Notes: generated by a model not told the origin, from the sequence alone. A DNA stretch of 64,000 bases from Gammaproteobacteria bacterium (GCA_965217605.1 CBDCJB010000014.1:12407-76406), one strand, 5' to 3'. Positions 44,436 to 61,112 are shown, counted from the first letter of the stretch. Made by a program: numbers and translations.

Positions 44436-44451
44436 GCAAAAAGAGGATGCC

Positions 44452-44889
44452 TCACGGCTCACAAACGAACACCGGGATGTCCCGCGCCGTGCGTTTTTGA
44501 TAATCCTCGAACGGCGCATAGTGTTCGACACAGGTCGGCCACAGCGCGGCTTTCTCGGCAGCGTCCGCCAGGCGTGCGCGGAGTTTTCGGCGTGCGCCAC
44601 CCTCTTCCACCTCGATATCGGGGTGGGCGATCAGATTGTGGTACCAACGTGGATTATTCGGCGAGCCGGCGAGCGATGCGACCAGGATGACGTTGTCGCC
44701 GTGCGGGACGTACATCAACGGGATGGTGCGCTGCTTACCCGATTTTGCGCCGGTCATCGTTACGAGGCAGATGGAGTCGCCCGCGAATTTATTCATGAAG
44801 CGTCCGCCGCTCACTTTATAGATCCATACGTTCAAGCGCGTGAACGCCTTGACCACCCAATGGGCCGGCGGTTTGCCCGTGTCGGCCAT
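44452..44889 (-). CDS. Nitroreductase family deazaflavin (F420)-dependent oxidoreductase (Ddn-like)
   Basis: TMTGAKSGK.RT.PLMY, AS.AG.P.NP.WYHNL.AHP, Y..YQ.RT.RDIPV. Confidence 0.9.
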   Translation of the reverse strand: MADTGKPPAHWVVKAFTRLNVWIYKVSGGRFMNKFAGDSICLVTMTGAKSGKQRTIPLMYVPHGDNVILVASLAGSPNNPRWYHNLIAHPDIEVEEGGARRKLRARLADAAEKAALWPTCVEHYAPFEDYQKRTARDIPVFVCEP

Positions 44890-45083
44890 TACGGCGCTCT
44901 TCGACCGCGTTGTTTCATCTCCTCCTGATACTCGCGATTTTCCATGCGTGCTTGCAACACGAACCACAACAGCCACAACACTACGCCGATTACGGCGAGC
45001 ACCATCTCACTGCCGACGAACGGGTAGATCGCGCCGATATCAGCGATCTCGCCGGCCCAAGTCTCGATATTTCCTGTCGCCAT
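44889..45083 (-). CDS. Small single-TM protein following Amt
   Basis: W...IADIGAIYPFVGSE + TM helix; TAATG overlap with the next gene. Confidence 0.7.
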   Translation of the reverse strand: MATGNIETWAGEIADIGAIYPFVGSEMVLAVIGVVLWLLWFVLQARMENREYQEEMKQRGRRAP

Positions 45084-45101
45084 GTTGATGACTCCTTCGA
45101 T

Positions 45102-46493
45102 CTAAGTTGGAGAAGAATGCGCTTGTTCGGCCGCTTCGATCTCCTTCATCGCGGCTTCGAATGCGATTTCCTGACCTACATCGAGCCCCTTGATCTCGAT
45201 TGCTTCGGGGATCCGCAGCAAACCGAATTTTTTCAACGCGGTCGAAACGATGTAAGCGGGTAGAAACCCGAGCACGAAAAACATGATGACCGCGCCGGCC
45301 GTCTGCCCCCAGGGCGAAATGGTCGCGTAATCCGGATTAGGCGATGCCGGATAACCCCACAAGACGAAGCCCGCGATGATGACGCCAAAGCATCCCGCAT
45401 AACCGTGCACGGCCACGGCGCCTACGCCGTCGTCCAGTTTGAATCGATTTTCGACCCAGTAATGTGCTTTGTATGCGAGCGTGGCGCCGGCCGCGCCGAT
45501 CAGCAGCGACTGTATCGGGTGATACAGGTCATTACCCGCCGACGCGGAAATAACGCCGGCCAGCGCGCACGAATAGGTCCAAAACGGATCACCCTTCGAG
45601 ACCAGATAACCGGCCAGGAAACCGCCCGATAGCGACATCAGGAAATTGAAGGTGATGGCCGACAAGGTCGTCGGTCCGAGGTAGATGTTGGTTGCAGAAA
45701 AAAATACGCCGTCGCCCGCCTGGATGTCAAACATCGGGATGTTGCAGGCCGCGTAAAATCCCCAAAAGCCGGTAAAGATGATGAACAGCCCGACGGTCGC
45801 CAACCAGGGGTCGTGAGGCGGGATCTCCCGTGCCGTGCCATCCGGCCGGAAACGGCCGATGCGCTGGCCCAGGGGGATCAAGACGCCGAGCGCAAAACCG
45901 CCCGCGATGGCGTGAATGACGCCCGACGCGTACGCATCGTGATAACCGAGCTTCTGCACCATCCAACCGTCCGGATGCCAACCCCACGAGGCATCGATGA
46001 TCCAAAGCACACAACCGATGAGAACAGCCAGTATCCAAAACGCATTGGACCGGATGCGCTCGATGGTCGCGGTCGATACGATGGCGGCGACGGTCCAGGA
46101 AAAGAGCAGGAAGGCCCCCCAGAAGACGCCGTTCAGACGTGACCATGTCGCCGTGTCTGCGCTCGTTAAAGCTTCACTCCCCGGCGGGCCGCCCAAATGC
46201 GGCCCCATGAGTTCGCTCCACGCCAGCGCGTGCGGCGCGTCCACCAGGCCGCCTGTTATGCCGGGCCCGTTCGGAAACGCGAAATAGATCCACCAGCCCA
46301 CGAAGAAGAATCCCAGCGTGACCAGGGGGATGTGCATGGTGACCTGCATCAGGGTGTGCAGGCGATTCTTTGCGCGAGACGCGGCAACCTCGTAGACGCA
46401 GAACCCGACCTTGATCAGGAACATCAAGACGATCATCACCCAGTAGTAAAATTCGGTGAACAGGATCGTCAGAGCCGTGGTTTCCTGATCCAT
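45102..46493 (-). CDS. amt: Ammonium/methylammonium transporter (Amt family)
   Basis: WGW...GW....GYHDAYASG.IH, GL..I..GF.GF, DD.VGAVAVHG motifs. Confidence 0.9.
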   Translation of the reverse strand: MDQETTALTILFTEFYYWVMIVLMFLIKVGFCVYEVAASRAKNRLHTLMQVTMHIPLVTLGFFFVGWWIYFAFPNGPGITGGLVDAPHALAWSELMGPHLGGPPGSEALTSADTATWSRLNGVFWGAFLLFSWTVAAIVSTATIERIRSNAFWILAVLIGCVLWIIDASWGWHPDGWMVQKLGYHDAYASGVIHAIAGGFALGVLIPLGQRIGRFRPDGTAREIPPHDPWLATVGLFIIFTGFWGFYAACNIPMFDIQAGDGVFFSATNIYLGPTTLSAITFNFLMSLSGGFLAGYLVSKGDPFWTYSCALAGVISASAGNDLYHPIQSLLIGAAGATLAYKAHYWVENRFKLDDGVGAVAVHGYAGCFGVIIAGFVLWGYPASPNPDYATISPWGQTAGAVIMFFVLGFLPAYIVSTALKKFGLLRIPEAIEIKGLDVGQEIAFEAAMKEIEAAEQAHSSPT

Positions 46494-46563
46494 ACCTCCC
46501 CCTGGATATTCGCCCGCTTGCGGGCGAATTATAAAGATCTACCGCGCCGGGTGCCGAACCTGC

Positions 46564-47199
46564 TCAAGCCTCGTTATCTCCGTAATACATGATCGACAGG
46601 AACTGGATCGGCAATGACAACAGCTTCTCGGGTCCGTGCGGGATGTTGCCATCGAAGGTGATGGCGTCACCCGGCTTTAACACGTACGTGTGGCGACCGT
46701 GCCGGTATTCGATCTTGCCTTTGAGCATGTAGAGGAATTCCGTACCTTCGTGCTGAAAACTCGGAAACGTTTCGCTCTCGTCATCGAGGGTGATCAGAAA
46801 CGGTTCGAAGTGCTTCTTGGGGCCCTGATCGTAGGACAGGAGCTCATAAGTGTGGCCGCGTTTCGTGCCGCGACGAGCCACGTCCATACCGTCACCTTTG
46901 GGGATGAACGTCGCCGTGCCTTCCGGTACGTCGAAATCCTTGAACAGATTACCGAGCGAGATGCCGAGCGATTGACAGATGCGCGACAAGGCATCGAGGC
47001 TCGGCGTAGCCTGGCCGTTTTCGATGCGGCTCAACATGCCGCGACTGACTTCGGACAGCTCGGAGACGTCCTGGATGGTCAAATGCTGATCGAGCCGCCG
47101 GTGCTTGAGCGCCGCACCCAGAAACGCGCTCAGATCGGGTTGGTCGGCGCCTAAACCCTCAATCAGTTTGAGGTCGGCCGTAGGGATTTTCTTACTCAT
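46564..47199 (-). CDS. XRE-family HTH + cupin transcriptional regulator
   Basis: LTIQDVSELSEVSRGMLSRIENGQATPSL HTH; FQHEGTEFLYML.G cupin. Confidence 0.92.
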   Translation of the reverse strand: MSKKIPTADLKLIEGLGADQPDLSAFLGAALKHRRLDQHLTIQDVSELSEVSRGMLSRIENGQATPSLDALSRICQSLGISLGNLFKDFDVPEGTATFIPKGDGMDVARRGTKRGHTYELLSYDQGPKKHFEPFLITLDDESETFPSFQHEGTEFLYMLKGKIEYRHGRHTYVLKPGDAITFDGNIPHGPEKLLSLPIQFLSIMYYGDNEA

Positions 47200-47207
47200 A
47201 GTGGAAT

Positions 47208-47278
47208 CCCGGATTCCGCTACGCTCCATCCAGGCTACGTAAGCCCTGTAGCCCGGATGGAGCGTAGCGGAATCCGGG
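47208..47278. repeat. Inverted REP pair (BIME-like)
   Basis: cccggattccgctacgctccatccaggctac (47208-47238) and gtagcccggatggagcgtagcggaatccggg (47248-47278). Confidence 0.85.
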
Positions 47279-47330
47279 GGCAACACTTAAACCGCGGTCG
47301 GCGCGCACGTGAATCATGCCGAGACAGGCT

Positions 47331-48665
47331 CTAATAAAACCCGAGCAACCGTTCGCGTTCCCAGTCGGAGATATGCCGGCAGTATTCGATCCATTCCATG
47401 CGCTTGACGTCCAGGAACTCGTCGATGAATGCCTTTCCGAGCTGCTCGGAGAACAACTTGCTCGATTCGAGTTCATCCAGGGCTTCGCCCAGGGTCTGCG
47501 GCAGAAGTTTCACTTTGCGCTTGCGCAGTTCGCGGTCTGACAGCTCGTAGAAATTGACGTTTTGCGGCGGGCCCGGATCGATTTCGTTTTCGATGCCGTC
47601 GAGGCCCGCAGCGATCATCGCTGCGCCGGCGAGATAGGGGTTGCAGGACGAATCGGCAAGCCGGAGCTCGAGCCGGCCGTAGGGTACGCGAACCATCGCC
47701 GTGCGATTGTTATCACCGTAACCGATGTAGGCCGGCGCCCAGGTCGCGCCCGAGAGGGCGCGGCCGACGACGAGCCGCTTGTAAGAATTGACCGACGGCG
47801 CGCTGAGGGCCGCCAACGGCCGAGCATGCTTCAGCAAACCACCGAGAAAATGATAGCCCGTCGTGGATAAACCGAGCCCGTTGGCGTCGCTGTCATCCTG
47901 AAAGAGATTGTTGCTGCCCCCGCCCGCGATCGAAATATGCATGTGCATGCCGCTGCCGGTGCGGTCGGTAAACGGTTTCGGCATGAAGGTGCATATGAGC
48001 CCGAGATCGTTTGCGATTTCGTTGGCCGCCATGCGGAAAAACACAAAGTGGTCCGCAGAGGTCAGGGCGTCGGTATAGGTGTAGTTCATCTCGAACTGAC
48101 CGTTACCGTCCTCGTGGTCGATTTGATACACGTCGAATCCGACTTCCTTGAGCGAATTCACGAGCGTTTCCAAAAAGGTTCTGCTGCGCGACAGCCCCTT
48201 GTAGTCGTAACAGGGTTTTTCGAGGATATCCGTGTCATCGGCGGGCGCCAGCGAACCGTCCTCGTGCCGCTGAAGCAACATGAATTCGGGCTCCAAGCCG
48301 GTATTCATGGTCCAACCCCGCTCGGACAAGCGCGCGATCTGCTGTTTCATGACGTAGCGCGTATCGAACGGCCACGGTTTTTCATCGACCGTGCCGTCGC
48401 ACACGATACGCGCATAGCCCGGCTGCCAGGGGACGAGCGAAAGGGTATTGATGTCACCGACCGCCATGAAGTCATGATCTTCGGGGCCTTGCCCCATTCC
48501 CCACGCGGCGAAACCCGCGAAGCCCGCACCGTCGGTCAGCACATCATCGAGGTGATCGGCGGGTACGGACTTGGTCTTCGCCACGCCGTGTATGTCCACG
48601 AATTGCGCTAGAACGAATTTGACGTCGTGTTTACTTAGAAAATCTTTCGCTTCAGTCGGCGTCAT
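47331..48665 (-). CDS. gmaS: Type III glutamate--ammonia ligase / gamma-glutamylmethylamide synthetase
   Basis: [39 protein letters not shown]....G.GMH.H; sits next to mgd-like genes. Confidence 0.85.
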
Positions 48666-49327
48666 GTGGCGTCTCCCCTTTGAATGAGTCCCAAATAATC
48701 GTTGTAGCCTGCGACGGACCCGCCGTGCTCCGCGATCACACCGGCAAGTGCCGCAAAGACAAAGACAGCGTCCGCGGGCGTACACATCAAACGGTAGTCG
48801 ACGCGTCCGCAGCGCAAGCGGCGCATCATGACCTCGCAGTTGGCGAGACGCGTCGCAATCCACATATCGTCCGCGGCATCGTCGATGTTCATCGGGCAAA
48901 GTTCGCTGACGGCGATGCTCGCCGCCGGCCCGCCCAAGGCGAAATCCGCCGCCTCAAGTTGCAACACCAACACATCACCTTGCCGGCCGGCGGGTTCATC
49001 GAACAGTTGGTCCGTTTTCTCAGGCTGACTCGCCGCGACGAGCATAAAGCGGTTGCGATGGACGTAGGCAACCGCACCATCGACACCGAGCGGCCGCCAA
49101 CGTAACAACGCCTGCGGCGCCTCGAGCCCAAAGGATTCCAGAAATTGCCGGGCGCCAACGCCCGCAATCATTCGTTTGTGCGCGGCGCTGACGTCTGCGA
49201 GGAAACCTGCGGCGTTTATCGTGGATCGCGTCGCGACCGCGATCAACGTGTCATTGACGGCGCCGTGTTCGAACCGCGCCGCGTCGAATGCGGCGATGAC
49301 CGGACTACGTTTCGCCGCTACGCTCAT
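48662..49327 (-). CDS. mgdD: N-methylglutamate dehydrogenase / sarcosine oxidase gamma-like subunit
   Basis: Position after the alpha subunit; GcvT-N-like sequence; 4-nt overlaps. Confidence 0.65.
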
Positions 49328-52242
49328 GCCGCCGTGTCGTAAGCCGCATCGAGATCCGGCGTCTGACGCTCGTTATCGGGATCATAGAAGGGCGTGTCGG
49401 TCACGACGCCGGTGACGAGCCGGCCGTTGGTCGTCCTGATCGACAGTTCCTGGCCTGTATCGGCGAGTGCCAGGTCGACGAACGCAAGCCCGATGATCTT
49501 CTCGAGGACGGGGCTGAAGGAAACGCTCGTGACGCGCCCCGCGATGCGATCGGCATCGATGATCAAATGGCTTTCCTGGATCGGATCGTCGCCCGCGTGG
49601 TCTTCGCCCATAGGATTATCGATCGCAAAGCCAATGAGCTTGCGGGCAAGCTTGGGTTTCAGGATCTCGAGGCTGTGCTTACCGTGAAATCGCGGTTTGG
49701 TCAGGCGCACGCCCCAACCGAGACGGACTTCGAAAGGATTGGTCGTGCCGTCGGTATCCTGGCCGATGATGATGTGGCCTTTCTCCAGGCGCAATAGACG
49801 CTGCGCTTCAACGCCGAAGGCCGCGCAGCCCTCAGGCGTGCCGGCCGCCAATAAACGTTCCCACAGGGTTGCGCCGTGACTTGCCGGACAATGGATTTCA
49901 TACCCCAGCTCACCTACGAATCCGACCCGCATCAGGCGCGCGGGGATGTCGGCAACCGCGCCCTCGCGTATTCCGAGATAGGGAAATGCCTCGTCGTGAA
50001 GATCCATGTCGGTGATGCGCTCGAGCACGCGCCGCGAAAACGGACCGGCGATGTTGACCGCGCCGAGCTGAAAGGTGCGATCGATAATCGCGACGTCGAG
50101 CTCGAGTTGATCGGCGAACAATTGCAATTGGCGCAACACAGTTTGCGAATGCGTGCTGGTGGCGGTGACGTAGAAGTGACCATCGCCGATGCGCCCGGCA
50201 ACGCCGTCGTCGACGATGGTCCCGCTCGAATCTACCATGAAGATGTAGCGCGTCATGCCCTTTGCGAGCTTGTCGAACGTGCACGTATAGGCGTGCTCGA
50301 GCAGCGCTTCGGCATCGGCGCCGAAGACTTCGATCTTGCCAAGCGTGGACACGTCGATGATACCGACCCCTTCACGCACGATGCGGTATTCGGCGTCGAC
50401 CTGCGCGAACGGCGAGCCCGCCTTATAGCTTTTGGGCCTGCGCCATGCGCCTGTGTCCATCATGTCGGCGCTGTGTTCGATGTGATACTCGTGCATGGGC
50501 GTATGCCATTCGCGGCGCAGGCGCCGGCCCGCCACGGTACCCATGGGTACGGGGTGATAAAACGGCCGCGGCGTCGTCACGCCGATCGCGTTCACGTCGC
50601 GCTGACGTTGCCGGGCGACAAACCGCACGCCGTTCATGTTCGATGTCTTGCCCTGGCTCGGCCCCATGCCGGTCGTCGAGTAACGCTTCAATAATTCGAT
50701 GGAGTCGAAACCCTCACGGATACCGACGCTGAGATCTTTGAGGTGAATATCCTCATCGAAATCGATGAACTCGTGTCCCTTGCGGTGTTTGTGGATCGGA
50801 TACGGATGCGAGTGCGAGGTGGTGTCGGCCGCGGGCCGAGCGTAAGACGATCGTTGAAGTGTGCCGAGATGCGCCATCGCTTCGCCCGCCGCGGCACGGC
50901 CGTCGGCAATGCGGTCGGCCAACGCGAAGACGCCGTTCAAACGGCCCGCCGCATGCACGCCGTCGGGCGTCGAGATCGGGACGATCTGATCGAGCGCGTC
51001 GTCATACGCAAAGCGTCCGCCCGCTTGATACAAGAGACTGCCGGCAGGCGCCCAACCCACGCTCATCATCAGGCCGTTGCAGGTGATCTCTTGCTCGATG
51101 CCGCCGTCGTTCGAATGGACGATCACGGACGCAAGGCGTCCACGCGCGGCCCGCGCTTCGTTCACATGGGCGTTCGGAATGAGTTGAATACCGCGCGCGA
51201 GTACGGCATGAGCGCCCTCGTGCGCGGGCGCGGTTGCATGCATATCGATGACGGCAGCCACGCGGATGCCGGCATCGGCATAATCGAGCGCTGCGCGGTA
51301 CCCTTCTTCGTTCGCGGTCAGGACAACGCAAGTATCGCAGGGCGCGACCGCGTAGCGATGGATCAGGCGCTGCGCCCCGGTGGCCAGCATGACACCCGGC
51401 CGGTCGTTGTGGCGAAACACCGCGGGTTGTTCCAGCACACCGGTGGCGATAACGATAGCGCGAGCCTGAACCACAACGATGCCGCTCGGTGTGACGACCG
51501 GGACGGTGTACTGGTCGTAACAGGCGCTCGCGGTCGCGTCGGTGAGCAATTCAACGTTGTCGGCCAGTTCGAGCCGCTCCAGCGCCGCGTCTCGAAACGA
51601 CTGTGCTTCGGCGTCGGTTACGTGCATATAGTCGAGCGCACCGCCTGCATACCGGTTCTCATCCACGATCACGACATCGAGATTCGCGTCGGCGAAGTGC
51701 GCGGCGGCGGCGAGCCCCGATGCGCCCGCCCCAACGATCAAGACATCGCAAAAACGGTGTGTATGCGGCTGTCGTCCCCCGCGGTGCGCGGTGTCGACTT
51801 TACCGAGCCCGGCGAGCTCGCGAATCAATCGCTCCCAGTACGGAAACGTCCAACGCGGCCGGTAAAACGCTTTGTAATAGAAGCCGACGGGTAGAAAGCG
51901 CGAGAAGATACTCAAGTATTGCGTCACGTCGCGCTTGAGGCCGAAGACGGTATTGACGGCGCGCAGAGATTCGCCTGCCGCAATGGGCGTGACGTCGCCG
52001 CGTATGTTCGTTGCATCCGGCGATTGCAACAGTACGTTGGCGTCGTGGTCGGCCATGGATAACACGCCGCGCGGGCGGTGATACTTGAAACTGCGCCCCA
52101 GCAACTGCTGGTCGTGGGCCAACAGCGCGCTCGATATGACATCGCCGCCGAATCCGTTGAACGTCACACCCTCGAATTCAAAATCGATGCGGGTATCGCG
52201 ATCGATCCATTCACGCGGTTGCTGTGGCAGGCGCCTACTCAT
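49324..52242 (-). CDS. mgdC: N-methylglutamate dehydrogenase / sarcosine oxidase alpha-like subunit
   Basis: GRSFKYHRPRG, GAGASGL, KRYSTTGMGPSQGK, DVSTLGK and GcvT C-terminal domain. Confidence 0.8.
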   Translation of the reverse strand: MSRRLPQQPREWIDRDTRIDFEFEGVTFNGFGGDVISSALLAHDQQLLGRSFKYHRPRGVLSMADHDANVLLQSPDATNIRGDVTPIAAGESLRAVNTVFGLKRDVTQYLSIFSRFLPVGFYYKAFYRPRWTFPYWERLIRELAGLGKVDTAHRGGRQPHTHRFCDVLIVGAGASGLAAAAHFADANLDVVIVDENRYAGGALDYMHVTDAEAQSFRDAALERLELADNVELLTDATASACYDQYTVPVVTPSGIVVVQARAIVIATGVLEQPAVFRHNDRPGVMLATGAQRLIHRYAVAPCDTCVVLTANEEGYRAALDYADAGIRVAAVIDMHATAPAHEGAHAVLARGIQLIPNAHVNEARAARGRLASVIVHSNDGGIEQEITCNGLMMSVGWAPAGSLLYQAGGRFAYDDALDQIVPISTPDGVHAAGRLNGVFALADRIADGRAAAGEAMAHLGTLQRSSYARPAADTTSHSHPYPIHKHRKGHEFIDFDEDIHLKDLSVGIREGFDSIELLKRYSTTGMGPSQGKTSNMNGVRFVARQRQRDVNAIGVTTPRPFYHPVPMGTVAGRRLRREWHTPMHEYHIEHSADMMDTGAWRRPKSYKAGSPFAQVDAEYRIVREGVGIIDVSTLGKIEVFGADAEALLEHAYTCTFDKLAKGMTRYIFMVDSSGTIVDDGVAGRIGDGHFYVTATSTHSQTVLRQLQLFADQLELDVAIIDRTFQLGAVNIAGPFSRRVLERITDMDLHDEAFPYLGIREGAVADIPARLMRVGFVGELGYEIHCPASHGATLWERLLAAGTPEGCAAFGVEAQRLLRLEKGHIIIGQDTDGTTNPFEVRLGWGVRLTKPRFHGKHSLEILKPKLARKLIGFAIDNPMGEDHAGDDPIQESHLIIDADRIAGRVTSVSFSPVLEKIIGLAFVDLALADTGQELSIRTTNGRLVTGVVTDTPFYDPDNERQTPDLDAAYDTAA

Positions 52243-52489
52243 CTTGCGGCCCTGCGAGCACGACGCGGCTGACCGCGTCGGTGCCCGTATGACGGGTGAC
52301 GTCGAACCACAGTTGCGATGGTAGGTGATACCACTGTTCAACCCGCTCGAGCGGTACGCTCTCGCGATTGAAGGCCCATGCAGCGGGCGTCATATCCGTG
52401 ATTTCCGCCGGTTCCACGTCGAGCACCCCGGCGATCGCAAACTCCGTGTGGGGGCGCTGACCGATGATCGGACAATCGATGAACTTCAC
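52235..52489 (-). CDS. mgdB: N-methylglutamate dehydrogenase / sarcosine oxidase delta-like subunit
   Basis: MK.I.CP..G.R...EF; W.H.PS..WF...RHT.TD (lacks the full SoxD Cys set). Confidence 0.75.
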   Translation of the reverse strand: MKFIDCPIIGQRPHTEFAIAGVLDVEPAEITDMTPAAWAFNRESVPLERVEQWYHLPSQLWFDVTRHTGTDAVSRVVLAGPQDE

Positions 52490-52499
52490 GACCGCGGCC

Positions 52500-53738
52500 T
52501 CAATGTCCGACCGCCGCCGCGCCTTTTTCGCCGACGAGTTGGTAATCGTCGAACCGCGACAGATTGAACGCAGTGATCAACTCGTGATCGCGATCGTCGA
52601 CCACCGTCGCGGCCATGGTCTTGCCGCAGATCGGCGTCGCCTTGAACCCCCAGGTACCCCAACCCGCATCGAGATAAAAGCCATCGACCGGGGTTCGGCC
52701 CATGATCGGTGCGAAATCCGGGGTCATATCGGCCATGCCCGCCCACTGTCGATTGATCTTGATCCCGGCGAGAAACGGAAACAGATCCAGCATCTGGTCG
52801 CAGATATCGCTGACGAATTCGAAGGTCGATCGCTGCGAATGGATCTCGATCGGATCGACCGATGCCCCCATGACCATCTCGCCGCGCGAACTCTGGCTCA
52901 CGTACAGGTGCAGACTGCCCGACACGACGATCGTATCGAGCCACGGTTTGATCGGCTCGGTCACACAGGCTTGCAAGGGAAAGATCTCGATCGGACTGTG
53001 TAGCTCGACCATCGCGAGCACGCTCGGCGTGTAGCCGGCAACGGCGGACACGACCTTGCGCGTCTTAATGCGTCCGTGATTCGTGACGACGGCGTCGACA
53101 CCATTACCGTTGCACTCGATCGCCGTAACCTCCGTGTCCTGGAAAATCGCGACGCCCGCTTCGGACGCGCGCCGCGCATAGCCCCAGGCGACGGCGTCAT
53201 GGCGCGCGACAGCGCCGGGGGCGTGATAGAGGGCGCCCAGGATCTCATGGTTACCCCCGCAAGACAGATCGAGTTCTGGACAGGCCCGCGCGATCTCGTC
53301 CGGGCCGACGACCTCACTTGAAACGCCGTAATGCTTATTGACCTCGGCGCGCCAGCGCGCGGTGCGTAAGGTCGCGTCGCTATGAGCCAAGGTGTAATGA
53401 CCCCGCTCGGAATAGAAGATGTTGAAATCGAGTTCCTCGGAAAGCGACTCGAACAGCGTCAAGCTGGCGTCATAGAATTTGACGCCTTCTTCAGTCAGGT
53501 AATTCGACCTCACGATCGTCGTGTTACGGCCGGTATTGCCACCGCCGATGTAGCTTCGATCGAGCACAGCGACGTTCGTGATACCGTGATCTTTCGCGAG
53601 GTAATACGCGCAAGCGAGGCCATGACCGCCGGCGCCGATGATCACGACGTCGTAGCTGTCGTTTAACGAATCGGGCGTATTGAAATAGCGCTCTTCAGCG
53701 TAATCCTCGATGAACCCGTATTTCAACAAGCGCAGCAT
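52500..53738 (-). CDS. mgdA: N-methylglutamate dehydrogenase / sarcosine oxidase beta-like subunit
   Basis: GAGGHGL, GGGNTGRNTTIVRSNY, GWGTWGFKA.P, GEKGAAAVGH. Confidence 0.8.
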   Translation of the reverse strand: MLRLLKYGFIEDYAEERYFNTPDSLNDSYDVVIIGAGGHGLACAYYLAKDHGITNVAVLDRSYIGGGNTGRNTTIVRSNYLTEEGVKFYDASLTLFESLSEELDFNIFYSERGHYTLAHSDATLRTARWRAEVNKHYGVSSEVVGPDEIARACPELDLSCGGNHEILGALYHAPGAVARHDAVAWGYARRASEAGVAIFQDTEVTAIECNGNGVDAVVTNHGRIKTRKVVSAVAGYTPSVLAMVELHSPIEIFPLQACVTEPIKPWLDTIVVSGSLHLYVSQSSRGEMVMGASVDPIEIHSQRSTFEFVSDICDQMLDLFPFLAGIKINRQWAGMADMTPDFAPIMGRTPVDGFYLDAGWGTWGFKATPICGKTMAATVVDDRDHELITAFNLSRFDDYQLVGEKGAAAVGH

Positions 53739-53747
53739 CGTATTTTT

Positions 53748-54461
53748 TTAGCTCGTGTTGTGCGCGTTGGCGGGTAGCATGACGAGGCGCTCCCGGCTGT
53801 AAGGACCACAGTACGTATGCAATAACCCTTTTAGTTCTTCAAGCGCGGCGTGCACGACGTCTTTAGATAGGTCCGCATGGCCTTGCAGGATGAACAAGAC
53901 GTCGCGTGTGGATGATTCGATCTTCGTGTTATCGGACTGCCTGCATTCCAAGTGGCATACGATTTCGCGCTCACCGTCCATATATGCGTATTCACCGGCT
54001 GGCACCGGTTGCAGTTTCGACCGGCCCAAGGGCCGGAAGGGTTCGTCGCCCCGCGTCCTCGCCAACTCGATCGAACGCGACACCTTATCGAGGTCGTGCG
54101 CACCCGTTGAGATACGGAATTTCAGCGAAATATAGTTGTATATATCAACGATTAGATTGATGGGGCGCAAGGCCTTGTGTTCGAACAACACGTTGAAGAT
54201 GCTTTCCGGTGAAGGCGTCATGGACGGATCCGTTACATCGAACCGGTCGTGCAGGTTTCGATAGCCTGCGATCTTGGGATCCGCACATAGGGCCGCCCGC
54301 GATCCGTCGCGCACGATGGCGTCTTGTAACGCCTTGTAGATCTCAGTGAACGCATCGTCATCAGCGCGATTCTCGAGCCCGGCAACGACGAGATAGGCCA
54401 CGTGGATCCCGGCCTCGGCGATGCCGGTCTCCAATCCCAGTTCCAGCGCATCGACATCCAT
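53748..54461 (-). CDS. B3/B4 (PheRS beta B3/4-like) domain protein
   Basis: YR.L..RF.....S..PSPE, IN.IVDIYN.IS......GAHDLDK, GDE.F.PLG, GEYAY.D motifs. Confidence 0.85.
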   Translation of the reverse strand: MDVDALELGLETGIAEAGIHVAYLVVAGLENRADDDAFTEIYKALQDAIVRDGSRAALCADPKIAGYRNLHDRFDVTDPSMTPSPESIFNVLFEHKALRPINLIVDIYNYISLKFRISTGAHDLDKVSRSIELARTRGDEPFRPLGRSKLQPVPAGEYAYMDGEREIVCHLECRQSDNTKIESSTRDVLFILQGHADLSKDVVHAALEELKGLLHTYCGPYSRERLVMLPANAHNTS

Positions 54462-54488
54462 CGGTCACCGCTGCGTCCGGGCCCGGGA

Positions 54489-54881
54489 TCAATCGAACTT
54501 CTCGTAAGCCCGGCGCAGATCGACCAGCGGATGATCGGGCGACATCTGAAACTTCACCAGCAATTCGCGTGCGATCATGTCGCGGTCCTGCTGGTTATCC
54601 GGTAAATCGATGTCTTCCGGCACCGTCACCCAGCCGTTGATATTGCGATCGAACACGGCCGCACGCCCTTCTTCGTAACCCATGTGGACGTCTTCGAGCC
54701 AATTGAGGTCCTTCCATCCCATCATGTCCAAGTATTTTTTGAGATAAGGGGTCAACCGCTCGTAATCGGGTAACAGGTTGACGTCGTAGCGGTACCCGAT
54801 CGTCTGCCCGATCATCTTCTCGCGGTCGGAATCGACGCCGTCGGACTTGAGGTAGTGATCGATGTCTTTGTTGTCGGTCAT
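54489..54881 (-). CDS. Conserved hypothetical protein
   Basis: 130 aa, co-oriented within the operon, ggag RBS. Confidence 0.75.
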   Translation of the reverse strand: MTDNKDIDHYLKSDGVDSDREKMIGQTIGYRYDVNLLPDYERLTPYLKKYLDMMGWKDLNWLEDVHMGYEEGRAAVFDRNINGWVTVPEDIDLPDNQQDRDMIARELLVKFQMSPDHPLVDLRRAYEKFD

Positions 54882-54894
54882 GATTACGCTCTCC

Positions 54895-56235
54895 CTAGAA
54901 TCGCGTCATATCCGGCCGGCCGACCGTGTGCTGCGATCCCGCTAGCGGCACCTGGGCCATCGCCGAAGCCTCCATCGTCAGCGCGGCTAGATCTTCCGGC
55001 TCCAGCGAATGCACGTTGGTCTTACCGCAGGCACGCGCCATCATCTGGCACTCGATCGTAAGGCAGTGCAAAAAGTTATACACGCGCTCGGCCGCGGCAT
55101 CGGGATCGAGCCGCTTGCGCAACTCGGGATCCTGGGTTGCGACGCCGACCGGGCAGCGTCCGGTGTGACAGTGATAGCAATAACCGGCTTTGACACCCAT
55201 TTCTTTTTCGTAGTCGGCTTCAGGGATGTCCTTGTTGCAATTCAGGGCCATCAAGGAGGAATGACCGATCGCGACCGCTTCGGCGCCGAGCGCCAGCGCT
55301 TTGGCGACATCGCCGCCGTTGCGGATCCCCCCGGCGTAGATCAGCGTGATCTCGCCGCTCTTACCGACGTCGTCGAGTGCGCGCCGCGCCTGGCGGATCG
55401 CTGCGATGCCCGGGACACCGGTCTCCTCGGCCGCCAAGTGGGGGCCTGCGCCGGTTCCACCTTCCATACCATCGAGATAAATTGCATCCGGATCGGTCTT
55501 CGCGGCCATGCGCACGTCGTCGTAGACGCGCGCGGCGCCGAGTTTCAGTTGAATGGGGATCTCCCAATTGGTTGCTTCGCGGATCTCCTGGATCTTCAAG
55601 GCGAGGTCGTCGGGGCCCAGCCAATCGGGATGCCGTGCCGGCGAGCGTTGATCGATCCCGGTCGGGAGCGAGCGCATCTCGGCGACCTGATCGGTGACTT
55701 TCTGGCCCATCAGGTGCCCGCCCAGTCCGACTTTGCAACCCTGGCCGATAAAGAATTCGCACGCGTCGGCTAAACGTAGGTGCTGCGGATTGAATCCGTA
55801 GCGGGACTGAATGCATTGATAGAACCACTTTTCCGAATAGCGCCGTTCGTCCGGAATCATGCCGCCCTCACCCGAACACGTCGCCGTGCCCGCCATGGTC
55901 GCGCCGCGCGCTAACGCGGTCTTCGCCTCGTAGGACAAGGCACCGAAACTCATGCCGGTGATGTAGACCGGTATATCGAGGACCAAGGGCCGTTTCGCGC
56001 GCGGTCCGATGATCGTTTTCGTTTCGCATTTCTCGCGATAACCCTCGATCACGAAACGCGTCAAGGTTCCCGGTAGAAACGTCAAGTCGTCCCAGTTAGG
56101 GATCTTCTTGAACATCGAAAACCCGCGCATGCGGTAACGCCCGAGTTCCGACTTGACATGAATGTCGTTAATGACTTCAGGCGTGAAGATCGGGCTCTGG
56201 CCCAGGATGTATTTTTCGTCGTCTGCGGTGGACAT
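54895..56235 (-). CDS. mgsC: FMN-binding glutamate synthase family protein (N-methylglutamate synthase C-like)
   Basis: GMSFGALS.EAK, SGEGGM, GQG.K.G.GGHL, GG.RNG.DVAKA.ALGA, CYHCHTGRCPVGVATQDP. Confidence 0.8.
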   Translation of the reverse strand: MSTADDEKYILGQSPIFTPEVINDIHVKSELGRYRMRGFSMFKKIPNWDDLTFLPGTLTRFVIEGYREKCETKTIIGPRAKRPLVLDIPVYITGMSFGALSYEAKTALARGATMAGTATCSGEGGMIPDERRYSEKWFYQCIQSRYGFNPQHLRLADACEFFIGQGCKVGLGGHLMGQKVTDQVAEMRSLPTGIDQRSPARHPDWLGPDDLALKIQEIREATNWEIPIQLKLGAARVYDDVRMAAKTDPDAIYLDGMEGGTGAGPHLAAEETGVPGIAAIRQARRALDDVGKSGEITLIYAGGIRNGGDVAKALALGAEAVAIGHSSLMALNCNKDIPEADYEKEMGVKAGYCYHCHTGRCPVGVATQDPELRKRLDPDAAAERVYNFLHCLTIECQMMARACGKTNVHSLEPEDLAALTMEASAMAQVPLAGSQHTVGRPDMTRF

Positions 56236-56279
56236 CGATAAAACCTCTATAACGTCGTTATTCGCCTGCGAGCGGGCTC

Positions 56280-57122
56280 CTACAGAACCAGTTTTTTCTC
56301 CGTCGGTTCGAGATTGTCGTAATTCCAAAGCTGCTTGCCGGACACGATCTTCTTCATGTTTTTCGCGCCGTTCGGCGTGCTGAGACCGTAAAGCGCGAGC
56401 TTGCGCTCGAGCCACTCGATATCGAGATCGCTCATCTCTTCTTCAACCGCATCCACCCCGAGGCTCTTGATGTCGCCGCCTACGTAGATCGTGCCGTCGT
56501 ACATGGAATCGCCCAGGTTTTGTCCCGCGCTGCCGAGTATCACCATGCGCCCGCGCTGCATCATGAAGCCGCTGAACGCACCCGTGTCGCCACCCACGAT
56601 GATGGTGCCGCCTTTCTGGTCTATGCCCGTACGCGCACCGACGCTGCCGACGCAGACGAGATCACCACCGCGGATGGCCGCGCCAAAGGTCGATCCCGCG
56701 TTTTTGTCGATCGACACCGTACCCGCCATCATGTTCTCGGCGCATGACCAACCGACCCGCCCGGTAATGTGTACATTGGGGCCGTCGAGAAGCCCGAGTC
56801 CGAAATAACCGAGGCTACCCTCGATATGCAGGTTTAATCGATTGAGGATACCGACGGCGATGCTGTGCTTGGCCCCCGGGTTCAGGATCCGGATCGTGCC
56901 GTGCCCGGCTTTCATCAACTCGCGGAGCTTGCGATTGATCGCCAAGGTGTCCATGTCTTGCGCGTCGAATTCGGCGCTTTCGTCGAAATCGACTTCATAG
57001 GTGAACGGCTGAATGAAATTCTCGCCGGCCTCCGCCGAAAAGAATCGCTGTTGGGTGCGCCCTTTGAGCTGCTCGGAATGCATCCCCATGTCATGGGACA
57101 CGTGCTCCTTTACGTTTGCCAT
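56280..57122 (-). CDS. mgsB: GXGXG-motif protein (glutamate synthase domain 3; MgsB-like)
   Basis: Repeated Gly-rich motifs, AENMMAG, G..AG..LGDS.Y.G. Confidence 0.8.
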   Translation of the reverse strand: MANVKEHVSHDMGMHSEQLKGRTQQRFFSAEAGENFIQPFTYEVDFDESAEFDAQDMDTLAINRKLRELMKAGHGTIRILNPGAKHSIAVGILNRLNLHIEGSLGYFGLGLLDGPNVHITGRVGWSCAENMMAGTVSIDKNAGSTFGAAIRGGDLVCVGSVGARTGIDQKGGTIIVGGDTGAFSGFMMQRGRMVILGSAGQNLGDSMYDGTIYVGGDIKSLGVDAVEEEMSDLDIEWLERKLALYGLSTPNGAKNMKKIVSGKQLWNYDNLEPTEKKLVL

Positions 57123-58048
57123 ACGCGGACCTCGCCTTCATAAGGATCGTAGGTATCGATTTCGTGCGGAAAGATGCTTCGGATCGCGACTTCTTCCGAC
57201 GCGAGCCCGACAAAATCATCGCTTTCATAAAGCACCATGGGTTTGGCCGCCATGGTGTCCTTCGCCATGCCCAATTGATCGCTGGTCGCGATCAGATAGG
57301 TGAAGACCCCGTCCAATTCATCGATCGAACGCCGCATTGCCGATTCCAGGTCTTCGCCATTTTGAATCGCATCGGCGATATACACGGCGATCAGCTCGGA
57401 ATCACAATCCGACATGAAACGATGACCACGGCGTTCGAGTTCGCGGCGCCGGGTCCAATAATTGGTCAACTGGCCGTTGTGGACCACGGAGACGTCGGAG
57501 AACGGATAGGCCCAATACGGATGGGCCGAGCGAATGTCGACGTCGGATTCGGTCGCCATGCGCGTGTGGCCGATCGCGTGCGTACCATTGAACTCGCCGA
57601 GAGAATACTGATTCGAGACGACGGTGGCATCGCCCAAATCCTTGATTAGCTCGAGTGCGTGTCCGATCGACAGGATCTCGACGGCTTCGATGTCCTCGAC
57701 ATAGGACGCTAGCTGTCGCAAGTCACCATCGAAGGTGATCTCGTATCGAAAGGCGTAGTCGTCGACGGATTTCTCCTTGTCGATCGTCGCGCCGAGTTCT
57801 TCCAAGCGCTCGTCCACGGCCGCTTTGCGCTCTTCCATTTGCCGCGCGATGGCAAAGCCGCTGCGCGCTTCCGCGCCTTCGGCGACCTTGAAGCGCACGA
57901 CGAACTTTTTCTTTTTACGGGGTTCGCTGTATAGCGCGAAGCCCGTTGAATCCGGTCCGCGGTGCTTCATGGCCTGCAACATCGCGGTCATTTGTTTCCC
58001 GATGTTGTCAGTGGACCCGCGGTGAATCACACCTGCGATTCCGCACAT
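57110..58048 (-). CDS. mgsA: Class II glutamine amidotransferase (MgsA-like)
   Basis: N-terminal MCGIAG, HRGPDSTG, GHTRMATES, VHNG. Confidence 0.8.
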   Translation of the reverse strand: MCGIAGVIHRGSTDNIGKQMTAMLQAMKHRGPDSTGFALYSEPRKKKKFVVRFKVAEGAEARSGFAIARQMEERKAAVDERLEELGATIDKEKSVDDYAFRYEITFDGDLRQLASYVEDIEAVEILSIGHALELIKDLGDATVVSNQYSLGEFNGTHAIGHTRMATESDVDIRSAHPYWAYPFSDVSVVHNGQLTNYWTRRRELERRGHRFMSDCDSELIAVYIADAIQNGEDLESAMRRSIDELDGVFTYLIATSDQLGMAKDTMAAKPMVLYESDDFVGLASEEVAIRSIFPHEIDTYDPYEGEVRVWQT

Positions 58049-58106
58049 ATCATTCGTCCTCTATCAATAAATCTCCGGCTCGTTGCGCTCGAGCCCGGAC
58101 GTGTCC

Positions 58107-59582
58107 TTATGGCAAACAATCGATATAGGTTTCGAGATCCCAATCCGTCACCGTAGCCATGAATTTTTCCCATTCGTCGTTCTTGTACCAATGGAAAACT
58201 TTATACATTTCACCCGGCATGGAGGATTTAATGACCTCGTCGTTTGCGAGCCGCTCCAGGGCATCGCCGAGCGACATCGGTAACCGTTTGACTTCCTTAC
58301 CCGCCTCCATGGCTTGGTAGATGTTCCGGTTTTCCGGTTCACCCGGATCGATATCGTTGTCGATACCGTCTTCAAATGCCTTGAGCAACGCGCTGCCCAT
58401 AAGGTACGGATTCACCATCGAGTCGACCGCCCGGTATTCGAAGCGGCCCGGCGCGGAGATGCGCAAGCCAGTGGTACGGTTCTGGAAACCCCAATCGGCG
58501 AACACGGGCGCCCAATAACCGGTATCCCACAACCGGCGATAGGAATTCACGGTCGAACAGCCGATCGCCGTCAACGCGCCTAAATGGGTCACGATCCCGC
58601 CGACACATTGCAAACCGATCTTGCCGGGCAACTGCGGATCGTCGGTATCCGGCATGAAGGTATTCTCACCCCCGTGCATATAGGTAAAACAGTCATCCAT
58701 GCCCGCGACGGGATCGTTATGTAGCGTGTTGATACGATCTTCACCACCGCGCCACAACGAAATATTGACATGACAGCCCGACGCCGACACGCCCATGAAG
58801 GGCTTGGTCATGAAGCACGCGATGAGGTTGTTCTCACGCGCGACCTGGCCGCAGATCTGGCGGTAGGTTGCCAGGCGATCGGCGTTGCGCACGACATCGT
58901 CGAACATCCAATTGAGTTCGAGTTGCCCGGGCGCGTCTTCGTGATCGCCCTGGATCATGTCCAGACCCATCGCGTTGCAGTATTCGATCACCTGCATGAA
59001 TACCGGGCGCAGCGATTCGAACTGATCGATGTGATAGCAGTTCGGCTTGGAGAAGCCGCCGTCCGGCATACCGTCCTCACCGCGCTTGAGCCACATCATC
59101 TCGGGCTCGGTCCCGACGCGGAAATTGAGATCGTATTTATCTTTGAACTCGGCGTAATGCCGTTTCAGATTGCCCCGGCAATCAGAGGTCAGATGCGCGC
59201 CGGCGTTTTCACGCTCCTCGCGGTTGCGAAAGCACACACAGAACACACGTGCAACGCGTTTGTCCCAGGGCAGTTGGCAAAAGGTTTCCGGATCGGGGAT
59301 GCCGACGAGTTCCATCGCTTCCGGTCCGTAACCGATGTACTCACCGTGCCGATCGACGTAGAGGTTCGCCGTCGATCCATAGACGAGCTGAAAGCCCCGC
59401 TCCGAAACCCGCTCCCAATGATCCGCAGGGATGCCTTTGCCTACGATGCGGCCCGTCACAGAGATGAACTGAAAATAGATGTACTTGATGTCAAGTTCGT
59501 TGATCTTCGAACGCACCTGGCTGACCAGCTCATCGCGGCCGGGGCTTTTAACGTAACGTTCCAGATCGGTTTCGGTCGCCAT
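58107..59582 (-). CDS. Glutamine synthetase-family ligase (second, divergent paralog)
   Basis: GTEPE, DHEDAPGQLE, MTKPF.GVSASGCH, WG.QNRT..LR, EYR..D...NPYL. Confidence 0.9.
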   Translation of the reverse strand: MATETDLERYVKSPGRDELVSQVRSKINELDIKYIYFQFISVTGRIVGKGIPADHWERVSERGFQLVYGSTANLYVDRHGEYIGYGPEAMELVGIPDPETFCQLPWDKRVARVFCVCFRNREERENAGAHLTSDCRGNLKRHYAEFKDKYDLNFRVGTEPEMMWLKRGEDGMPDGGFSKPNCYHIDQFESLRPVFMQVIEYCNAMGLDMIQGDHEDAPGQLELNWMFDDVVRNADRLATYRQICGQVARENNLIACFMTKPFMGVSASGCHVNISLWRGGEDRINTLHNDPVAGMDDCFTYMHGGENTFMPDTDDPQLPGKIGLQCVGGIVTHLGALTAIGCSTVNSYRRLWDTGYWAPVFADWGFQNRTTGLRISAPGRFEYRAVDSMVNPYLMGSALLKAFEDGIDNDIDPGEPENRNIYQAMEAGKEVKRLPMSLGDALERLANDEVIKSSMPGEMYKVFHWYKNDEWEKFMATVTDWDLETYIDCLP

Positions 59583-59603
59583 CGAAATCTTCCTCTTGTT
59601 GTA

Positions 59604-60950
59604 CTAGCTCCAGGGGAATGGGCTATTGGAAGTCGGGTGCAGCCGTCCTTCGGCATAGCGCGAAAAACGAAACGGCTCTAGTAATTGGGATTTCGCGCCC
59701 ACGATCTCTTCGGCCACGAGCTTGCCGACGCCGATCATTTTGTAGCCATGATTCGAGTCGGCAATGATGTAACAGTTTTCGCGAAACACATCGAAGACCG
59801 GGAAACGATCCGGCGTAAAACAACCGATACCGCCGGACGGTTCGTCTTTGTATTCGACGAGCTTGCCTTCGAAACGCTTCTGGCAGTGCGCCAACGACGA
59901 CACCCAGCGGCGTGCGAAGGTCTCGCCCATTACGTAATCGGGCGATTCGTGACCGTAAGGGTCGACGCGTACTTCGTCAGACGGCGTCGATACCTTGTCC
60001 GGGACAGCGCCACCTTGCACGCCACCGAAATTAAAGTCCGGTTTGTAATAAATGCCCCACAAGTCCTCAGTAATGACCGCGCCGTCATCGTCGGCAACGA
60101 GCGGTGCGTCGGTATCCACGTGAATGACCGGGGGCATCGCGCCGTCGTTGGTCTTGAGTAAATTCGGGTCGACACCCAAGGTCCCTTCTTGTAGAGACAA
60201 GAAATCCCACATCGGGACGCGGTCGTGCACGATTCCATCCTTGCCCTTTATCGCGATGGCCTTCGGCAACTCCAACAGTTCCCACACCTGCTTGATCCAC
60301 GGCCCGACCCCGACGACGACGTAATCGCATTCGATACGGCCCTGATCCGTCTCGACCGCCGTGATCGCGTCCGTGGCGGTACTCGCCACGTCGAATCCCG
60401 TAACTCTGACACCAACTCGAATGGTGACGCCCTCCGCCTCAGCCTTATTGGCGAGGCCCATCATGCTCGGCACGTTGTTGGCGTATCCGCCGCGCTTTTC
60501 ATGCAGCACCGACGTGATATTTTGCGCCTGCCAATCGTCGAAGAGCCCCTTCATGTAGCTCATCGAGTCGCCCGCACCTTCGATGAACACGGATTCGTAT
60601 CCGATATCTTTTTGCTGCTGCGCGATGGAAGCGACGCCTTCGTGCATGCATTCTGGAGAGATCTGCATGTAGCCGACCGGGTGGTAACTAAACGCTTGCC
60701 TGTCGCTATCCCACACGTCGACGCTGTGCGCCATTAATTCACGCATCGCGGGTTGAAAGTAATTGTTGCGAATGACGCCGCAGGCGATGCCGGAGGCTCC
60801 GGCCGCGATGCCGGTCTTGTCGATGATTTGGATGTCGGCGCCGCTACCCTGGCCGTTGGCTTTGAGTTGCAGCGCCAGATGATAGGCCGTGCTCAGTCCC
60901 TGTACGCCAGCTCCGATGATCAGGTATTTCGTCTTCGACTTCGAAGCCAC
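59604..60950 (-). CDS. FAD-dependent oxidoreductase (DAO/sarcosine oxidase beta-like fold)
   Basis: IIGAGVQGLS, GASGIACG.IRN, TPDRFP, DSNHGYK..G.G; GTG start with gagg RBS. Confidence 0.85.
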   Translation of the reverse strand: MASKSKTKYLIIGAGVQGLSTAYHLALQLKANGQGSGADIQIIDKTGIAAGASGIACGVIRNNYFQPAMRELMAHSVDVWDSDRQAFSYHPVGYMQISPECMHEGVASIAQQQKDIGYESVFIEGAGDSMSYMKGLFDDWQAQNITSVLHEKRGGYANNVPSMMGLANKAEAEGVTIRVGVRVTGFDVASTATDAITAVETDQGRIECDYVVVGVGPWIKQVWELLELPKAIAIKGKDGIVHDRVPMWDFLSLQEGTLGVDPNLLKTNDGAMPPVIHVDTDAPLVADDDGAVITEDLWGIYYKPDFNFGGVQGGAVPDKVSTPSDEVRVDPYGHESPDYVMGETFARRWVSSLAHCQKRFEGKLVEYKDEPSGGIGCFTPDRFPVFDVFRENCYIIADSNHGYKMIGVGKLVAEEIVGAKSQLLEPFRFSRYAEGRLHPTSNSPFPWS

Positions 60951-61112
60951 GCTACGCGACCTCCTCGCATTCATTTACTGAACTGGGTTGGCGCCCTCGT
61001 GACCATTCGAGAAGTTGCATGTTATGCAATTTTTATTTACTACCATACAACTCTTCGATCGCTAGCGTCAAGCTCGAAACAGGCCGCCGCGGGCATCGAT
61101 AGAATAGCGCGC

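Follow-up and report, generated by a model that had tools for sequence, protein, structure and literature searches.

A widespread marine paralogue of the first two enzymes of the N-methylglutamate pathway, joined to GmaS and a presumed MgdABCD-type dehydrogenase in a gammaproteobacterium

Among the major pools of organic nitrogen in the sea are methylated amines, which also act as precursors of climate-active aerosols. The described system closest to the locus treated here is the N-methylglutamate pathway, known from Methyloversatilis, Methylocella and Ruegeria and as glnT-glxBCD from Rhizobium. The locus is a run of minus-strand genes at 44889-60974 of a 64,000-nt stretch of DNA (GCA_965217605.1, CBDCJB010000014.1:12407-76406; hereafter the window, whose numbering is used throughout), which comes from a metagenome-assembled genome of 4.8 Mb with a completeness of 89.6% and with uncultured marine gammaproteobacteria as its closest relatives. 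The run follows the same domain logic as the pathway and contains a true GmaS and an Mgd-type tetramer. It differs in that a second ligase, a glutamine synthetase (GS)-like protein of 491 amino acids (aa) termed GS491, and a trio of GATase (A'), GXGXG (B') and FMN (C') subunits are distant paralogues of the pathway enzymes, that B' carries an extension, and that a 130-aa protein (hyp130), a lone SoxB-like FAD oxidoreductase (FADox), an Amt channel and a small transmembrane (TM) protein are attached. Together these make up a module which is an uncharacterised, widespread paralogue of the first two enzymes of the N-methylglutamate pathway, here fused to GmaS and Mgd.

Two other groups of amine routes invite comparison. 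The PuuA/PuuB route of E. coli and the Ipu-type isopropylamine route resemble the locus in their GS-like ligase, accompanied in PuuA/PuuB by a DAO-family flavoenzyme, and in a PuuR-like XRE-cupin regulator, and relatives of GS491 from outside its clade occur in Ipu-like plasmid clusters; however, PuuA belongs to another clade, and those routes employ type-1 amidotransferase hydrolases, P450 or aldehyde dehydrogenases and no glutamate-synthase-like trio. DmmDABC has no sequence or mechanistic relation to the module, which might nevertheless fill the same step, the disposal of dimethylamine, in bacteria without Dmm. How dimethylamine is removed in SAR11, which lacks DmmDABC, and in other abundant bacteria without it is an open question (PMC5520151).

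The closest match in gene content lies in SAR11 itself. In 'Ca. Pelagibacter ubique', Smith et al. give SAR11_1304-1310 the names sox, glnT, gltB2 and amt but assign them no function (PMC3870248), and Sun et al. identify a second set, SAR11_1313-1316, as mgsABC with gmaS (PMC3160333). No functional study of the SAR11_1304-1310 module was found in the literature, by locus tag or by the intermediates proposed below. Pelagibacter loci carry the same genes in the same order at 58-80% identity, including the small TM gene after Amt; the module thus appears to be SAR11_1304-1310, an equivalence of gene order and annotation in which HTCC1062 itself was not compared. By position and annotation, FADox matches SAR11_1304, lying after Tdm and before GS491 in a Pelagibacter genome, GS491 matches SAR11_1305 and Amt matches SAR11_1310. 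Many SAR11 loci continue from the module to a second trio, 29-54% identical to the first, and then to glnT. The two arrangements differ in that the SAR11 set lies between Tdm and canonical glxBCD-glnT, whereas neither Tdm nor canonical glxBCD was found in the genome of the window, where a B3/4-domain gene, mgdABCD, gmaS and an XRE-cupin gene are inserted between hyp130 and Amt.

Genes of the window were called from an open reading frame (ORF) listing with Pfam and NCBIfam profile scans, which bear out the gene list of the original prediction: 15 minus-strand genes in one run, the small TM ORF included. As in an operon, adjacent genes either overlap or lie 9-70 nt apart; the start of GmaS and the stop of mgdD, for instance, share an ATGA overlap. 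The gene order is repeated in a congener (G057, locus L119). Promoter and terminator scans of the run gave counts at chance level. The genes, from the upstream end, are as follows.

59604-60974, minus strand: FAD oxidoreductase, FADox (Pfam DAO, 99.9 bits)
58107-59582, minus strand: GS-like protein of 491 aa, GS491 (Pfam Gln-synt_C)
57110-58048, minus strand: class-II (Ntn) GATase, subunit A' (Pfam GATase_6 and GATase_7)
56280-57122, minus strand: GXGXG beta-helix protein, subunit B' (Pfam GXGXG, residues 79-230)
54895-56235, minus strand: FMN glutamate-synthase-domain protein, subunit C' (Pfam Glu_synthase, 304 bits; start at 56235 inferred from relatives, the longest ORF extending to 56415)
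54489-54881, minus strand: hyp130, 130 aa (no family match)
53748-54461, minus strand: B3/4-domain protein (Pfam B3_4, 81 bits)
52500-53738, minus strand: SoxB-like subunit of the mgdABCD-like set (TIGR01373, 455.6 bits)
52235-52489, minus strand: SoxD-like subunit (TIGR01374, 39.4 bits reported for the mgdABCD-like set)
49324-52341, minus strand: SoxA-like subunit (TIGR01372, 784.6 bits; GCV_T folate-binding domains)
48662-49327, minus strand: SoxG-like subunit
47331-48665, minus strand: GmaS, glnT-type ligase (TIGR03105, 660.6 bits)
46564-47286, minus strand: XRE helix-turn-helix and cupin regulator (Pfam HTH_3 and Cupin_2)
45102-46493, minus strand: module-type Amt (Pfam Ammonium_transp, 173 bits)
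44889-45083, minus strand: 64-aa ORF with one TM helix (ORF listing)

The part of the run that belongs to the known pathway is readily recognized. The ligase at 47331-48665 passes the glnT/GmaS equivalog profile TIGR03105 (cut-off 469.6 bits), matches PDB entry 9qur, 'Glutamate--methylamine ligase', over its full length (673 bits, E 2e-201) and scores 348 bits against RhGmaS (7cql); by these matches it is a genuine GmaS, gamma-glutamylmethylamide synthetase. The Sox-like tetramer falls under all NCBIfam sarcosine-oxidase cut-offs with the scores listed above, and its four subunits, which are of the beta, delta and gamma types and of an alpha type that bears a folate domain, are encoded with gmaS and mgs-type genes, in line with MgdABCD; in L120, from another genus, an MgdA orthologue (73%) stands at the head of an mgsABC-gmaS operon of the canonical kind. 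The tetramer at 48662-53738 is presumed to be an N-methylglutamate dehydrogenase of the MgdABCD type, and the folate-binding GCV_T domains of its SoxA-like subunit point to one-carbon groups.

The trio that would connect these two enzymes is of a different kind. A'B'C' has the architecture of MgsABC, namely a separate Ntn-type GATase with Cys1 (N-terminus MCGIAG, compared with MCGIVG in Rhizobium GlxB), a GXGXG subunit and an FMN subunit, and the run holds no GltD-like gene; the trio is not an orthologue of the glxBCD/mgsABC sets that accompany glnT/gmaS. Identity of A', B' and C' to Rhizobium GlxBCD is 33%, 39% and 53%, where the canonical FMN subunit of L120 reaches 78% to GlxD. A' is 58-85% identical to module copies elsewhere and only 29-33% to the mgsABC/GlxB-type copies of SAR11 and Rhizobium, and C' is 72-95% identical to module copies and 51-54% to canonical MgsC/GlxD. 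The N-terminal extension of B', put at about 50 aa in the original prediction, is real: it amounts to about 55 aa over Rhizobium GlxC (280 against 228 aa) and is conserved in the SAR11 copy of 284 aa. As a separate observation, C' (residues about 353-361) and SAR11 canonical MgsC share a motif, C-x2-C-x4-C-P-V-G-V-A-T-Q, which aligns with the 3Fe-4S cluster site of GltB (C-x5-C-x4-C-P) and where Rhizobium GlxD has no Cys; some Mgs-type enzymes may accordingly hold an Fe-S cluster.

No canonical MgsABC was found in the 89.6% complete genome of the window, the best match of Rhizobium GlxD there being C' itself. The search was widened to 81 genomes of the order to which this genome belongs, 18 of which carry module-type C'; both MgsC types coexist in nine of these, and the other nine are without the canonical type, which was recognized by an identity of 50-54%. 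All nine genomes with module C' alone carry GmaS, in eight of them of the 9qur-like type. The three genomes of the genus, the window's included, share module-type C' and GmaS without canonical MgsC, which was likewise not found in either congener (completeness 95% and 96%, one of the two assemblies consisting of three contigs), and a closed 2.1-Mb genome (G003) holds the module and a GmaS-like gene with no canonical MgsC found. One candidate for a true MgsABC, a split set on contig C1 of the window's genome (L112, G000:C1, 7778-13268), was rejected: it lies among polysaccharide-biosynthesis genes and consists of a GATase, a 652-aa fusion of GXGXG and FMN domains and a GltD-like protein of 841 aa, a partner that gives it the look of a glutamate synthase (GOGAT). 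The 841-aa protein also bears an extra GltS-like tail, and the set recurs in relatives, with about 40% identity to C'.

What is new here is the trio as the sole Mgs-like enzyme found in nine genomes with GmaS, followed in the operon by MgdABCD in the window and one congener. As no other Mgs-like set accompanies GmaS and Mgd, A'B'C' probably serves GmaS and GS491 alike as N-methylglutamate synthase; on gene content, the module trio appears to have taken over the synthase role from canonical Mgs in this lineage. The original prediction had proposed an uncharacterised branch in which a coupled MgsABC-like set feeds the same Mgd. The branch joining Mgd is a fair reading, but the MgsABC-like set has no standard counterpart beside it: neither in this genome nor in the two congeners was another Mgs-like enzyme found, and a working methylamine route would require the set to serve GmaS as well.

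It could be argued that the module and gmaS/mgd are mere neighbours which work separately, with canonical mgsABC lying in the unassembled tenth or so of the genome. The completeness of 89.6% leaves room for this, and in some relatives (G071, G072 and G075) GmaS is distant from the module. Against it stand the two more complete congeners that also lack canonical MgsC, the closed genome with the same combination, the identical fused run of G057, and the close packing of the genes on a single strand, where start and stop codons overlap, which together make this explanation very improbable.

GS491, the second ligase of the run, was called divergent in the original prediction; it groups with none of GmaS, GlnA and PuuA, so that the refuting case named there does not arise. 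Against TIGR03105 it scores 299.1 bits in two stretches, which fails the cut-off that GmaS passes, and against the GlnA profile TIGR00653 it scores 243 bits with a cut-off of 429; identity to GmaS is about 29-30%, and its similarity to archaeal and Bacillus GS structures and to GmaS structures is about equal. Within its own group it is 75-90% identical among SAR11, SAR324, Arenicellales and other gammaproteobacteria. In a maximum-likelihood tree the GS491 clade stands on a long stem (2.1 changes per site) and is supported at 100% by SH-aLRT, with 9qur-like GmaS, the group of Rhizobium GlnT and SAR11 glnT, GlnA and PuuA all outside it; the node that joins the clade with 9qur-like GmaS and the GlnT group has only 85% support and is left open. 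GS491 is, on profile scores and tree position, neither GmaS nor GlnA and is a member of a separate, highly conserved clade.

Residue comparison with RhGmaS, using the residue list of PMC7948447, gives an indication of its chemistry. All metal, ATP and glutamate ligands of the ligase site are retained, and the amine site is of the GmaS type, Q-x-D-H-E...E-x-N, present as Q-G-D-H-E-D...L-E-L-N in a MAFFT alignment. The counterparts of Gln175, Asp177, Glu179, Glu186 and Asn188 are kept and those of Asp50, Ser53 and Glu327 are not, while for Lys30' and Tyr147 no confident alignment was obtained. The flap residue Glu327 is replaced by Trp and His271 by Asn. The ammonium-site motif DGSS (Asp50-Gly-Ser-Ser53) was not found, its loop being remodelled (QLVYGSTA and NLYVDRHGEY); the placement of this loop differs between phmmer and MAFFT, and the absence of DGSS is the sole claim made for it. 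With an intact ligase site and replaced ammonium-site residues, GS491 looks like a competent amine ligase rather than a glutamine synthetase.

As observations in their own right, the nearest relatives of GS491 outside the clade (52-54%) lie on plasmids of Paracoccus and Ruegeria (L102, L103; NZ_CP098363.1, NZ_CP065360.1), in clusters where type-1 amidotransferases and another GS-like gene are also present. P450 and ferredoxin genes complete the cluster in Ruegeria; in Paracoccus, there are aldehyde dehydrogenases and a gene of the gamma-glutamyl-GABA hydrolase family. Both clusters resemble routes of alkylamine gamma-glutamylation. A Gordonia KTR9 plasmid (NC_018580.1) carries a relative at 40%, which falls under a gene with the annotation of an FAD-dependent oxidoreductase and is perhaps a GS-reductase fusion. 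A 67% GS491 paralogue with a second GS-like gene lies divergent from Tmm-Tdm in G033 (L118, G033:C48, 9305-15977), of a genus without the module. Ligases of the GS491 family and of the 'GSa' family recur in pairs, namely in L118, L120 and the plasmids of Paracoccus TOH and Ruegeria SCSIO 43209.

The surroundings of GS491 were surveyed in 80 fetched loci, each count below being limited to loci with enough flank; this sample is dominated by SAR11, and the loci are therefore not independent. After GS491 follow a module-type GATase in 70 of 72 loci, a module-type GXGXG protein in 67/69, a module-type FMN subunit in 65/67 and, after C', hyp130 in 63/65. FADox lies upstream in 61 of 72 loci, and a module-type Amt is present within the locus in 54 of 61. 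FADox, GS491, A'B'C', hyp130, Amt and the small TM protein are thus one widely conserved marine module. A survey of the block of FAD oxidoreductase, GS and MgsABC had been proposed with the original prediction; the block is indeed conserved, and is no local oddity but a widespread marine module matching SAR11_1304-1310.

FADox is not a known subunit of the standard pathway, in agreement with the original prediction. Its DAO domain match (cut-off 27.9 bits) covers residues 17-234 only, and it reaches no NCBIfam equivalog cut-off (soxB 53 bits against 529); identity among module loci is 59-76%. An AlphaFold model of moderate quality (pLDDT 64, pTM 0.67) retrieves with Foldseek heterotetrameric SoxB, Pyrococcus horikoshii proline dehydrogenase beta, monomeric sarcosine oxidase (MSOX) and dimethylglycine oxidase (DMGO) as top matches (E about 1e-16 to 1e-14, TM-score 0.57-0.68). 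FADox therefore has both the DAO domain and the two-domain fold of an N-alkyl amino-acid oxidase, as sarcosine-oxidase-type flavoenzymes do, and its predicted fold is assigned with moderate confidence as SoxB/MSOX/DMGO-like. A candidate folate partner for FADox, a DmmD-like aminomethyltransferase on contig C11, was dropped because its neighbours are a monooxygenase of the NtaA/DmoA type and genes for type II secretion. This gene (L122, G000:C11, 9293-11965), 51% to Rhizobium DmmD and lying beside the NtaA/DmoA-family FMN monooxygenase without DmmABC, could belong to another N-demethylation system.

The remaining module proteins are small or lie at the membrane. hyp130 has no match in Pfam, NCBIfam, PDB or ESM Atlas and its AlphaFold model is unusable (pLDDT 43); its mean column identity is 77% across SAR11 and gammaproteobacteria, and it is read as a probable extra subunit. 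Amt scores 164 bits against TIGR00836 (cut-off 343) and is 57-69% identical to the Amts that follow hyp130 elsewhere; in comparison with E. coli AmtB it keeps His168/His318, the Phe107/Phe215 gate, Trp148 and Asp160, with Ser219 changed to Cys. The 64-aa TM ORF stands directly after Amt in SAR11 and gammaproteobacterial loci (tblastn E down to 2e-17), and this conservation marks it as a real gene.

In such a set of proteins an alternative GS/GOGAT for ammonium might be seen, with GS491 making glutamine, the trio making glutamate and FADox supplying electrons. The link to Amt, a domain set that equals a split GltB, the three-Cys motif of C' at the GltB 3Fe-4S site and the glnT/gltB2 annotation of the SAR11 genes all fit such a scheme. 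It is nonetheless extremely improbable: GS491 is without the DGSS motif and the flap Glu327, as are GmaS and PuuA, the fold of FADox is that of an amine oxidase and not of a GltD-type NAD(P)H reductase, the proteins annotated SAR11_1305 and SAR11_1308 drop under nitrogen limitation, and GlnA, GltB and the GltD-linked split GOGAT are already in the genome.

Taken as a whole, the run can tentatively be read, at somewhat under an even chance, as a hybrid methylated-amine operon in which GmaS and the MgdABCD-type dehydrogenase are joined to the conserved marine module, the trio acts as synthase for both ligases and GS491 serves a second amine. In this scheme A'B'C' would take gamma-glutamyl amides from both GmaS and GS491; Cys1 of A' would free the amine, the FMN subunit C' would fix it onto the glutamate carbon skeleton, and Mgd would then hand the methyl group to tetrahydrofolate. 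GS491 might capture a second small methylated amine entering via Amt, with dimethylamine the likeliest; in that case the trio could make N,N-dimethylglutamate, from which FADox could strip the first methyl group to leave N-methylglutamate for Mgd.

Genomic context bears on the choice of amine. A substrate with a methyl group is favoured by the repeated fusion of the module to folate-linked Mgd, by the Amt-type channel and by Tdm next to FADox in Pelagibacter, where it is directly upstream (it is 9 kb away in an Arenicellales genome). The 67% GS491 paralogue beside Tmm-Tdm in G033 points the same way. RhGmaS is poor with dimethylamine, its Km being 16 mM compared with 27 uM for methylamine (PMC7948447), and SAR11 is without DmmDABC, so that a dedicated dimethylamine ligase would make sense. 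The substrate of GS491 would thus most likely be a small methylated amine, with dimethylamine as the first choice suggested by sequence and context. A wider proposal, possible if rather doubtful, is that GS491, A'B'C' and hyp130, with or without FADox, provide the missing route for dimethylamine in SAR11, in SAR324 and in many gammaproteobacteria of the sea, running through N,N-dimethylglutamate and stepwise demethylation, and that the same synthase also took over the methylamine step in lineages like that of the window.

A serious rival, though on balance unlikely, is that methylamine is the substrate of both ligases, GS491 being perhaps an isozyme of high affinity. The module would then form a complete N-methylglutamate route of its own, in parallel to the known one, in which FADox would oxidize N-methylglutamate independently of folate; GmaS and Mgd would be the folate-linked version for the same substrate. 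Every alignable amine-site residue of GmaS (Q, D, E, E, N) is kept in GS491, which also has the Trp flap, the Amt pore is that of a normal ammonium/methylammonium channel, the module is self-sufficient on paper with its own ligase, synthase and oxidase, and it occurs in genomes without Tdm. However, GS491 never replaces GmaS: in the order, GS491 of at least 74% identity is found in 24 genomes and GmaS is also present in 23 of them, which indicates an add-on and not a substitute. Streamlined SAR11 genomes, moreover, retain both full sets side by side, and the two ligases, at about 29% identity, form separate clades. L120 is also odd for pure redundancy, as GS491 alone heads a canonical operon there (GS491-mgdABCD-mgsABC-gmaS) and two ligases share one synthase and one dehydrogenase.

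Another small amine, such as ethylamine, ethanolamine, another alkylamine or hydroxylamine, could also be the substrate, with FADox oxidizing an N-alkylglutamate to an aldehyde. RhGmaS accepts ethylamine and hydroxylamine as well (PMC7948447), and the nearest out-clade relatives of GS491 are those in the Paracoccus and Ruegeria plasmid clusters that resemble gamma-glutamyl alkylamine routes. This is distinctly unlikely in view of the repeated joining of the module to folate-linked Mgd, to GmaS/Mgs genes and, in SAR11, to Tdm, and of its tie to an Amt-type channel with no amine permease or ABC system.

Several points weigh against the hybrid operon and its dimethylamine branch. Under nitrogen limitation in SAR11, the proteins annotated SAR11_1305, 1308 and 1310 fall and the one annotated SAR11_1304 rises (PMC3870248), opposite responses which mean that these genes are not simply co-regulated. 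All 18 genomes of the order with module-type C' are without Tdm, and the six genomes with Tdm, all of one genus, are without the module FMN subunit, four of them carrying a GS491 paralogue of 61-67%; as Tdm and the module never occur together in the order, a finding which is also new here, the Tdm link of SAR11 is not universal, and the argument for dimethylamine from Tdm adjacency fails in this lineage. DmmC is present in one of the 81 genomes of the order. FADox is not upstream of GS491 in 11 of 72 loci, nor in the L120 arrangement, and is thus not obligatory. No precedent was found in the literature for an Mgs-type enzyme that reductively fixes a secondary amine on 2-oxoglutarate. As regards the trio as sole synthase, the nine genomes (the window's and eight relatives) represent about three genera, so that kin are not independent and independent events are few; in four GmaS genomes of the order no Mgs of either type was found; and canonical mgsABC could be unassembled in the genome of the window.

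Other genes in and around the run touch on these questions less directly. The B3/4 protein is 61% identical in the congener and 44% in L009 and was not found in the SAR11 loci examined; by this distribution it is a lineage-specific insert between the module and mgd. The B3/4 domain has the fold of the PheRS-beta editing domain, here stand-alone between the hyp130 gene and mgdA. The XRE-cupin regulator has a PuuR-like architecture (40 bits against PuuR NF007408, under its cut-off) and homologues of 41-72% identity in N-methylglutamate or module loci (L011, L083, L087).

The run extends beyond 44889 on the minus strand (43125-44889) with a gene of the deazaflavin/F420H2-dependent nitroreductase family (Pfam F420H2_quin_red, 132 bits), whose probable ATG start overlaps the stop of the small TM gene; an F420-type enzyme is unusual in a gammaproteobacterium. 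An M20 amidohydrolase whose start resembles a signal peptide follows. On the other side, a sodium:alanine-symporter-family (AGCS) gene at 60753-62453 on the plus strand is divergent from FADox and has the same position in the congener at 81% identity; next to it, at 62446-63969 on the minus strand, lies a 507-aa protein with no Pfam or NCBIfam match.

Few uncharacterised gene sets that adjoin methylated-amine pathways are as strongly conserved as the module, and the lineage of the window shows it to be independent of the trimethylamine N-oxide demethylase. The window itself is a natural experiment in which the canonical synthase appears to have been displaced by the module, joined here to GmaS and Mgd, so that the role of the module is directly testable by complementation.

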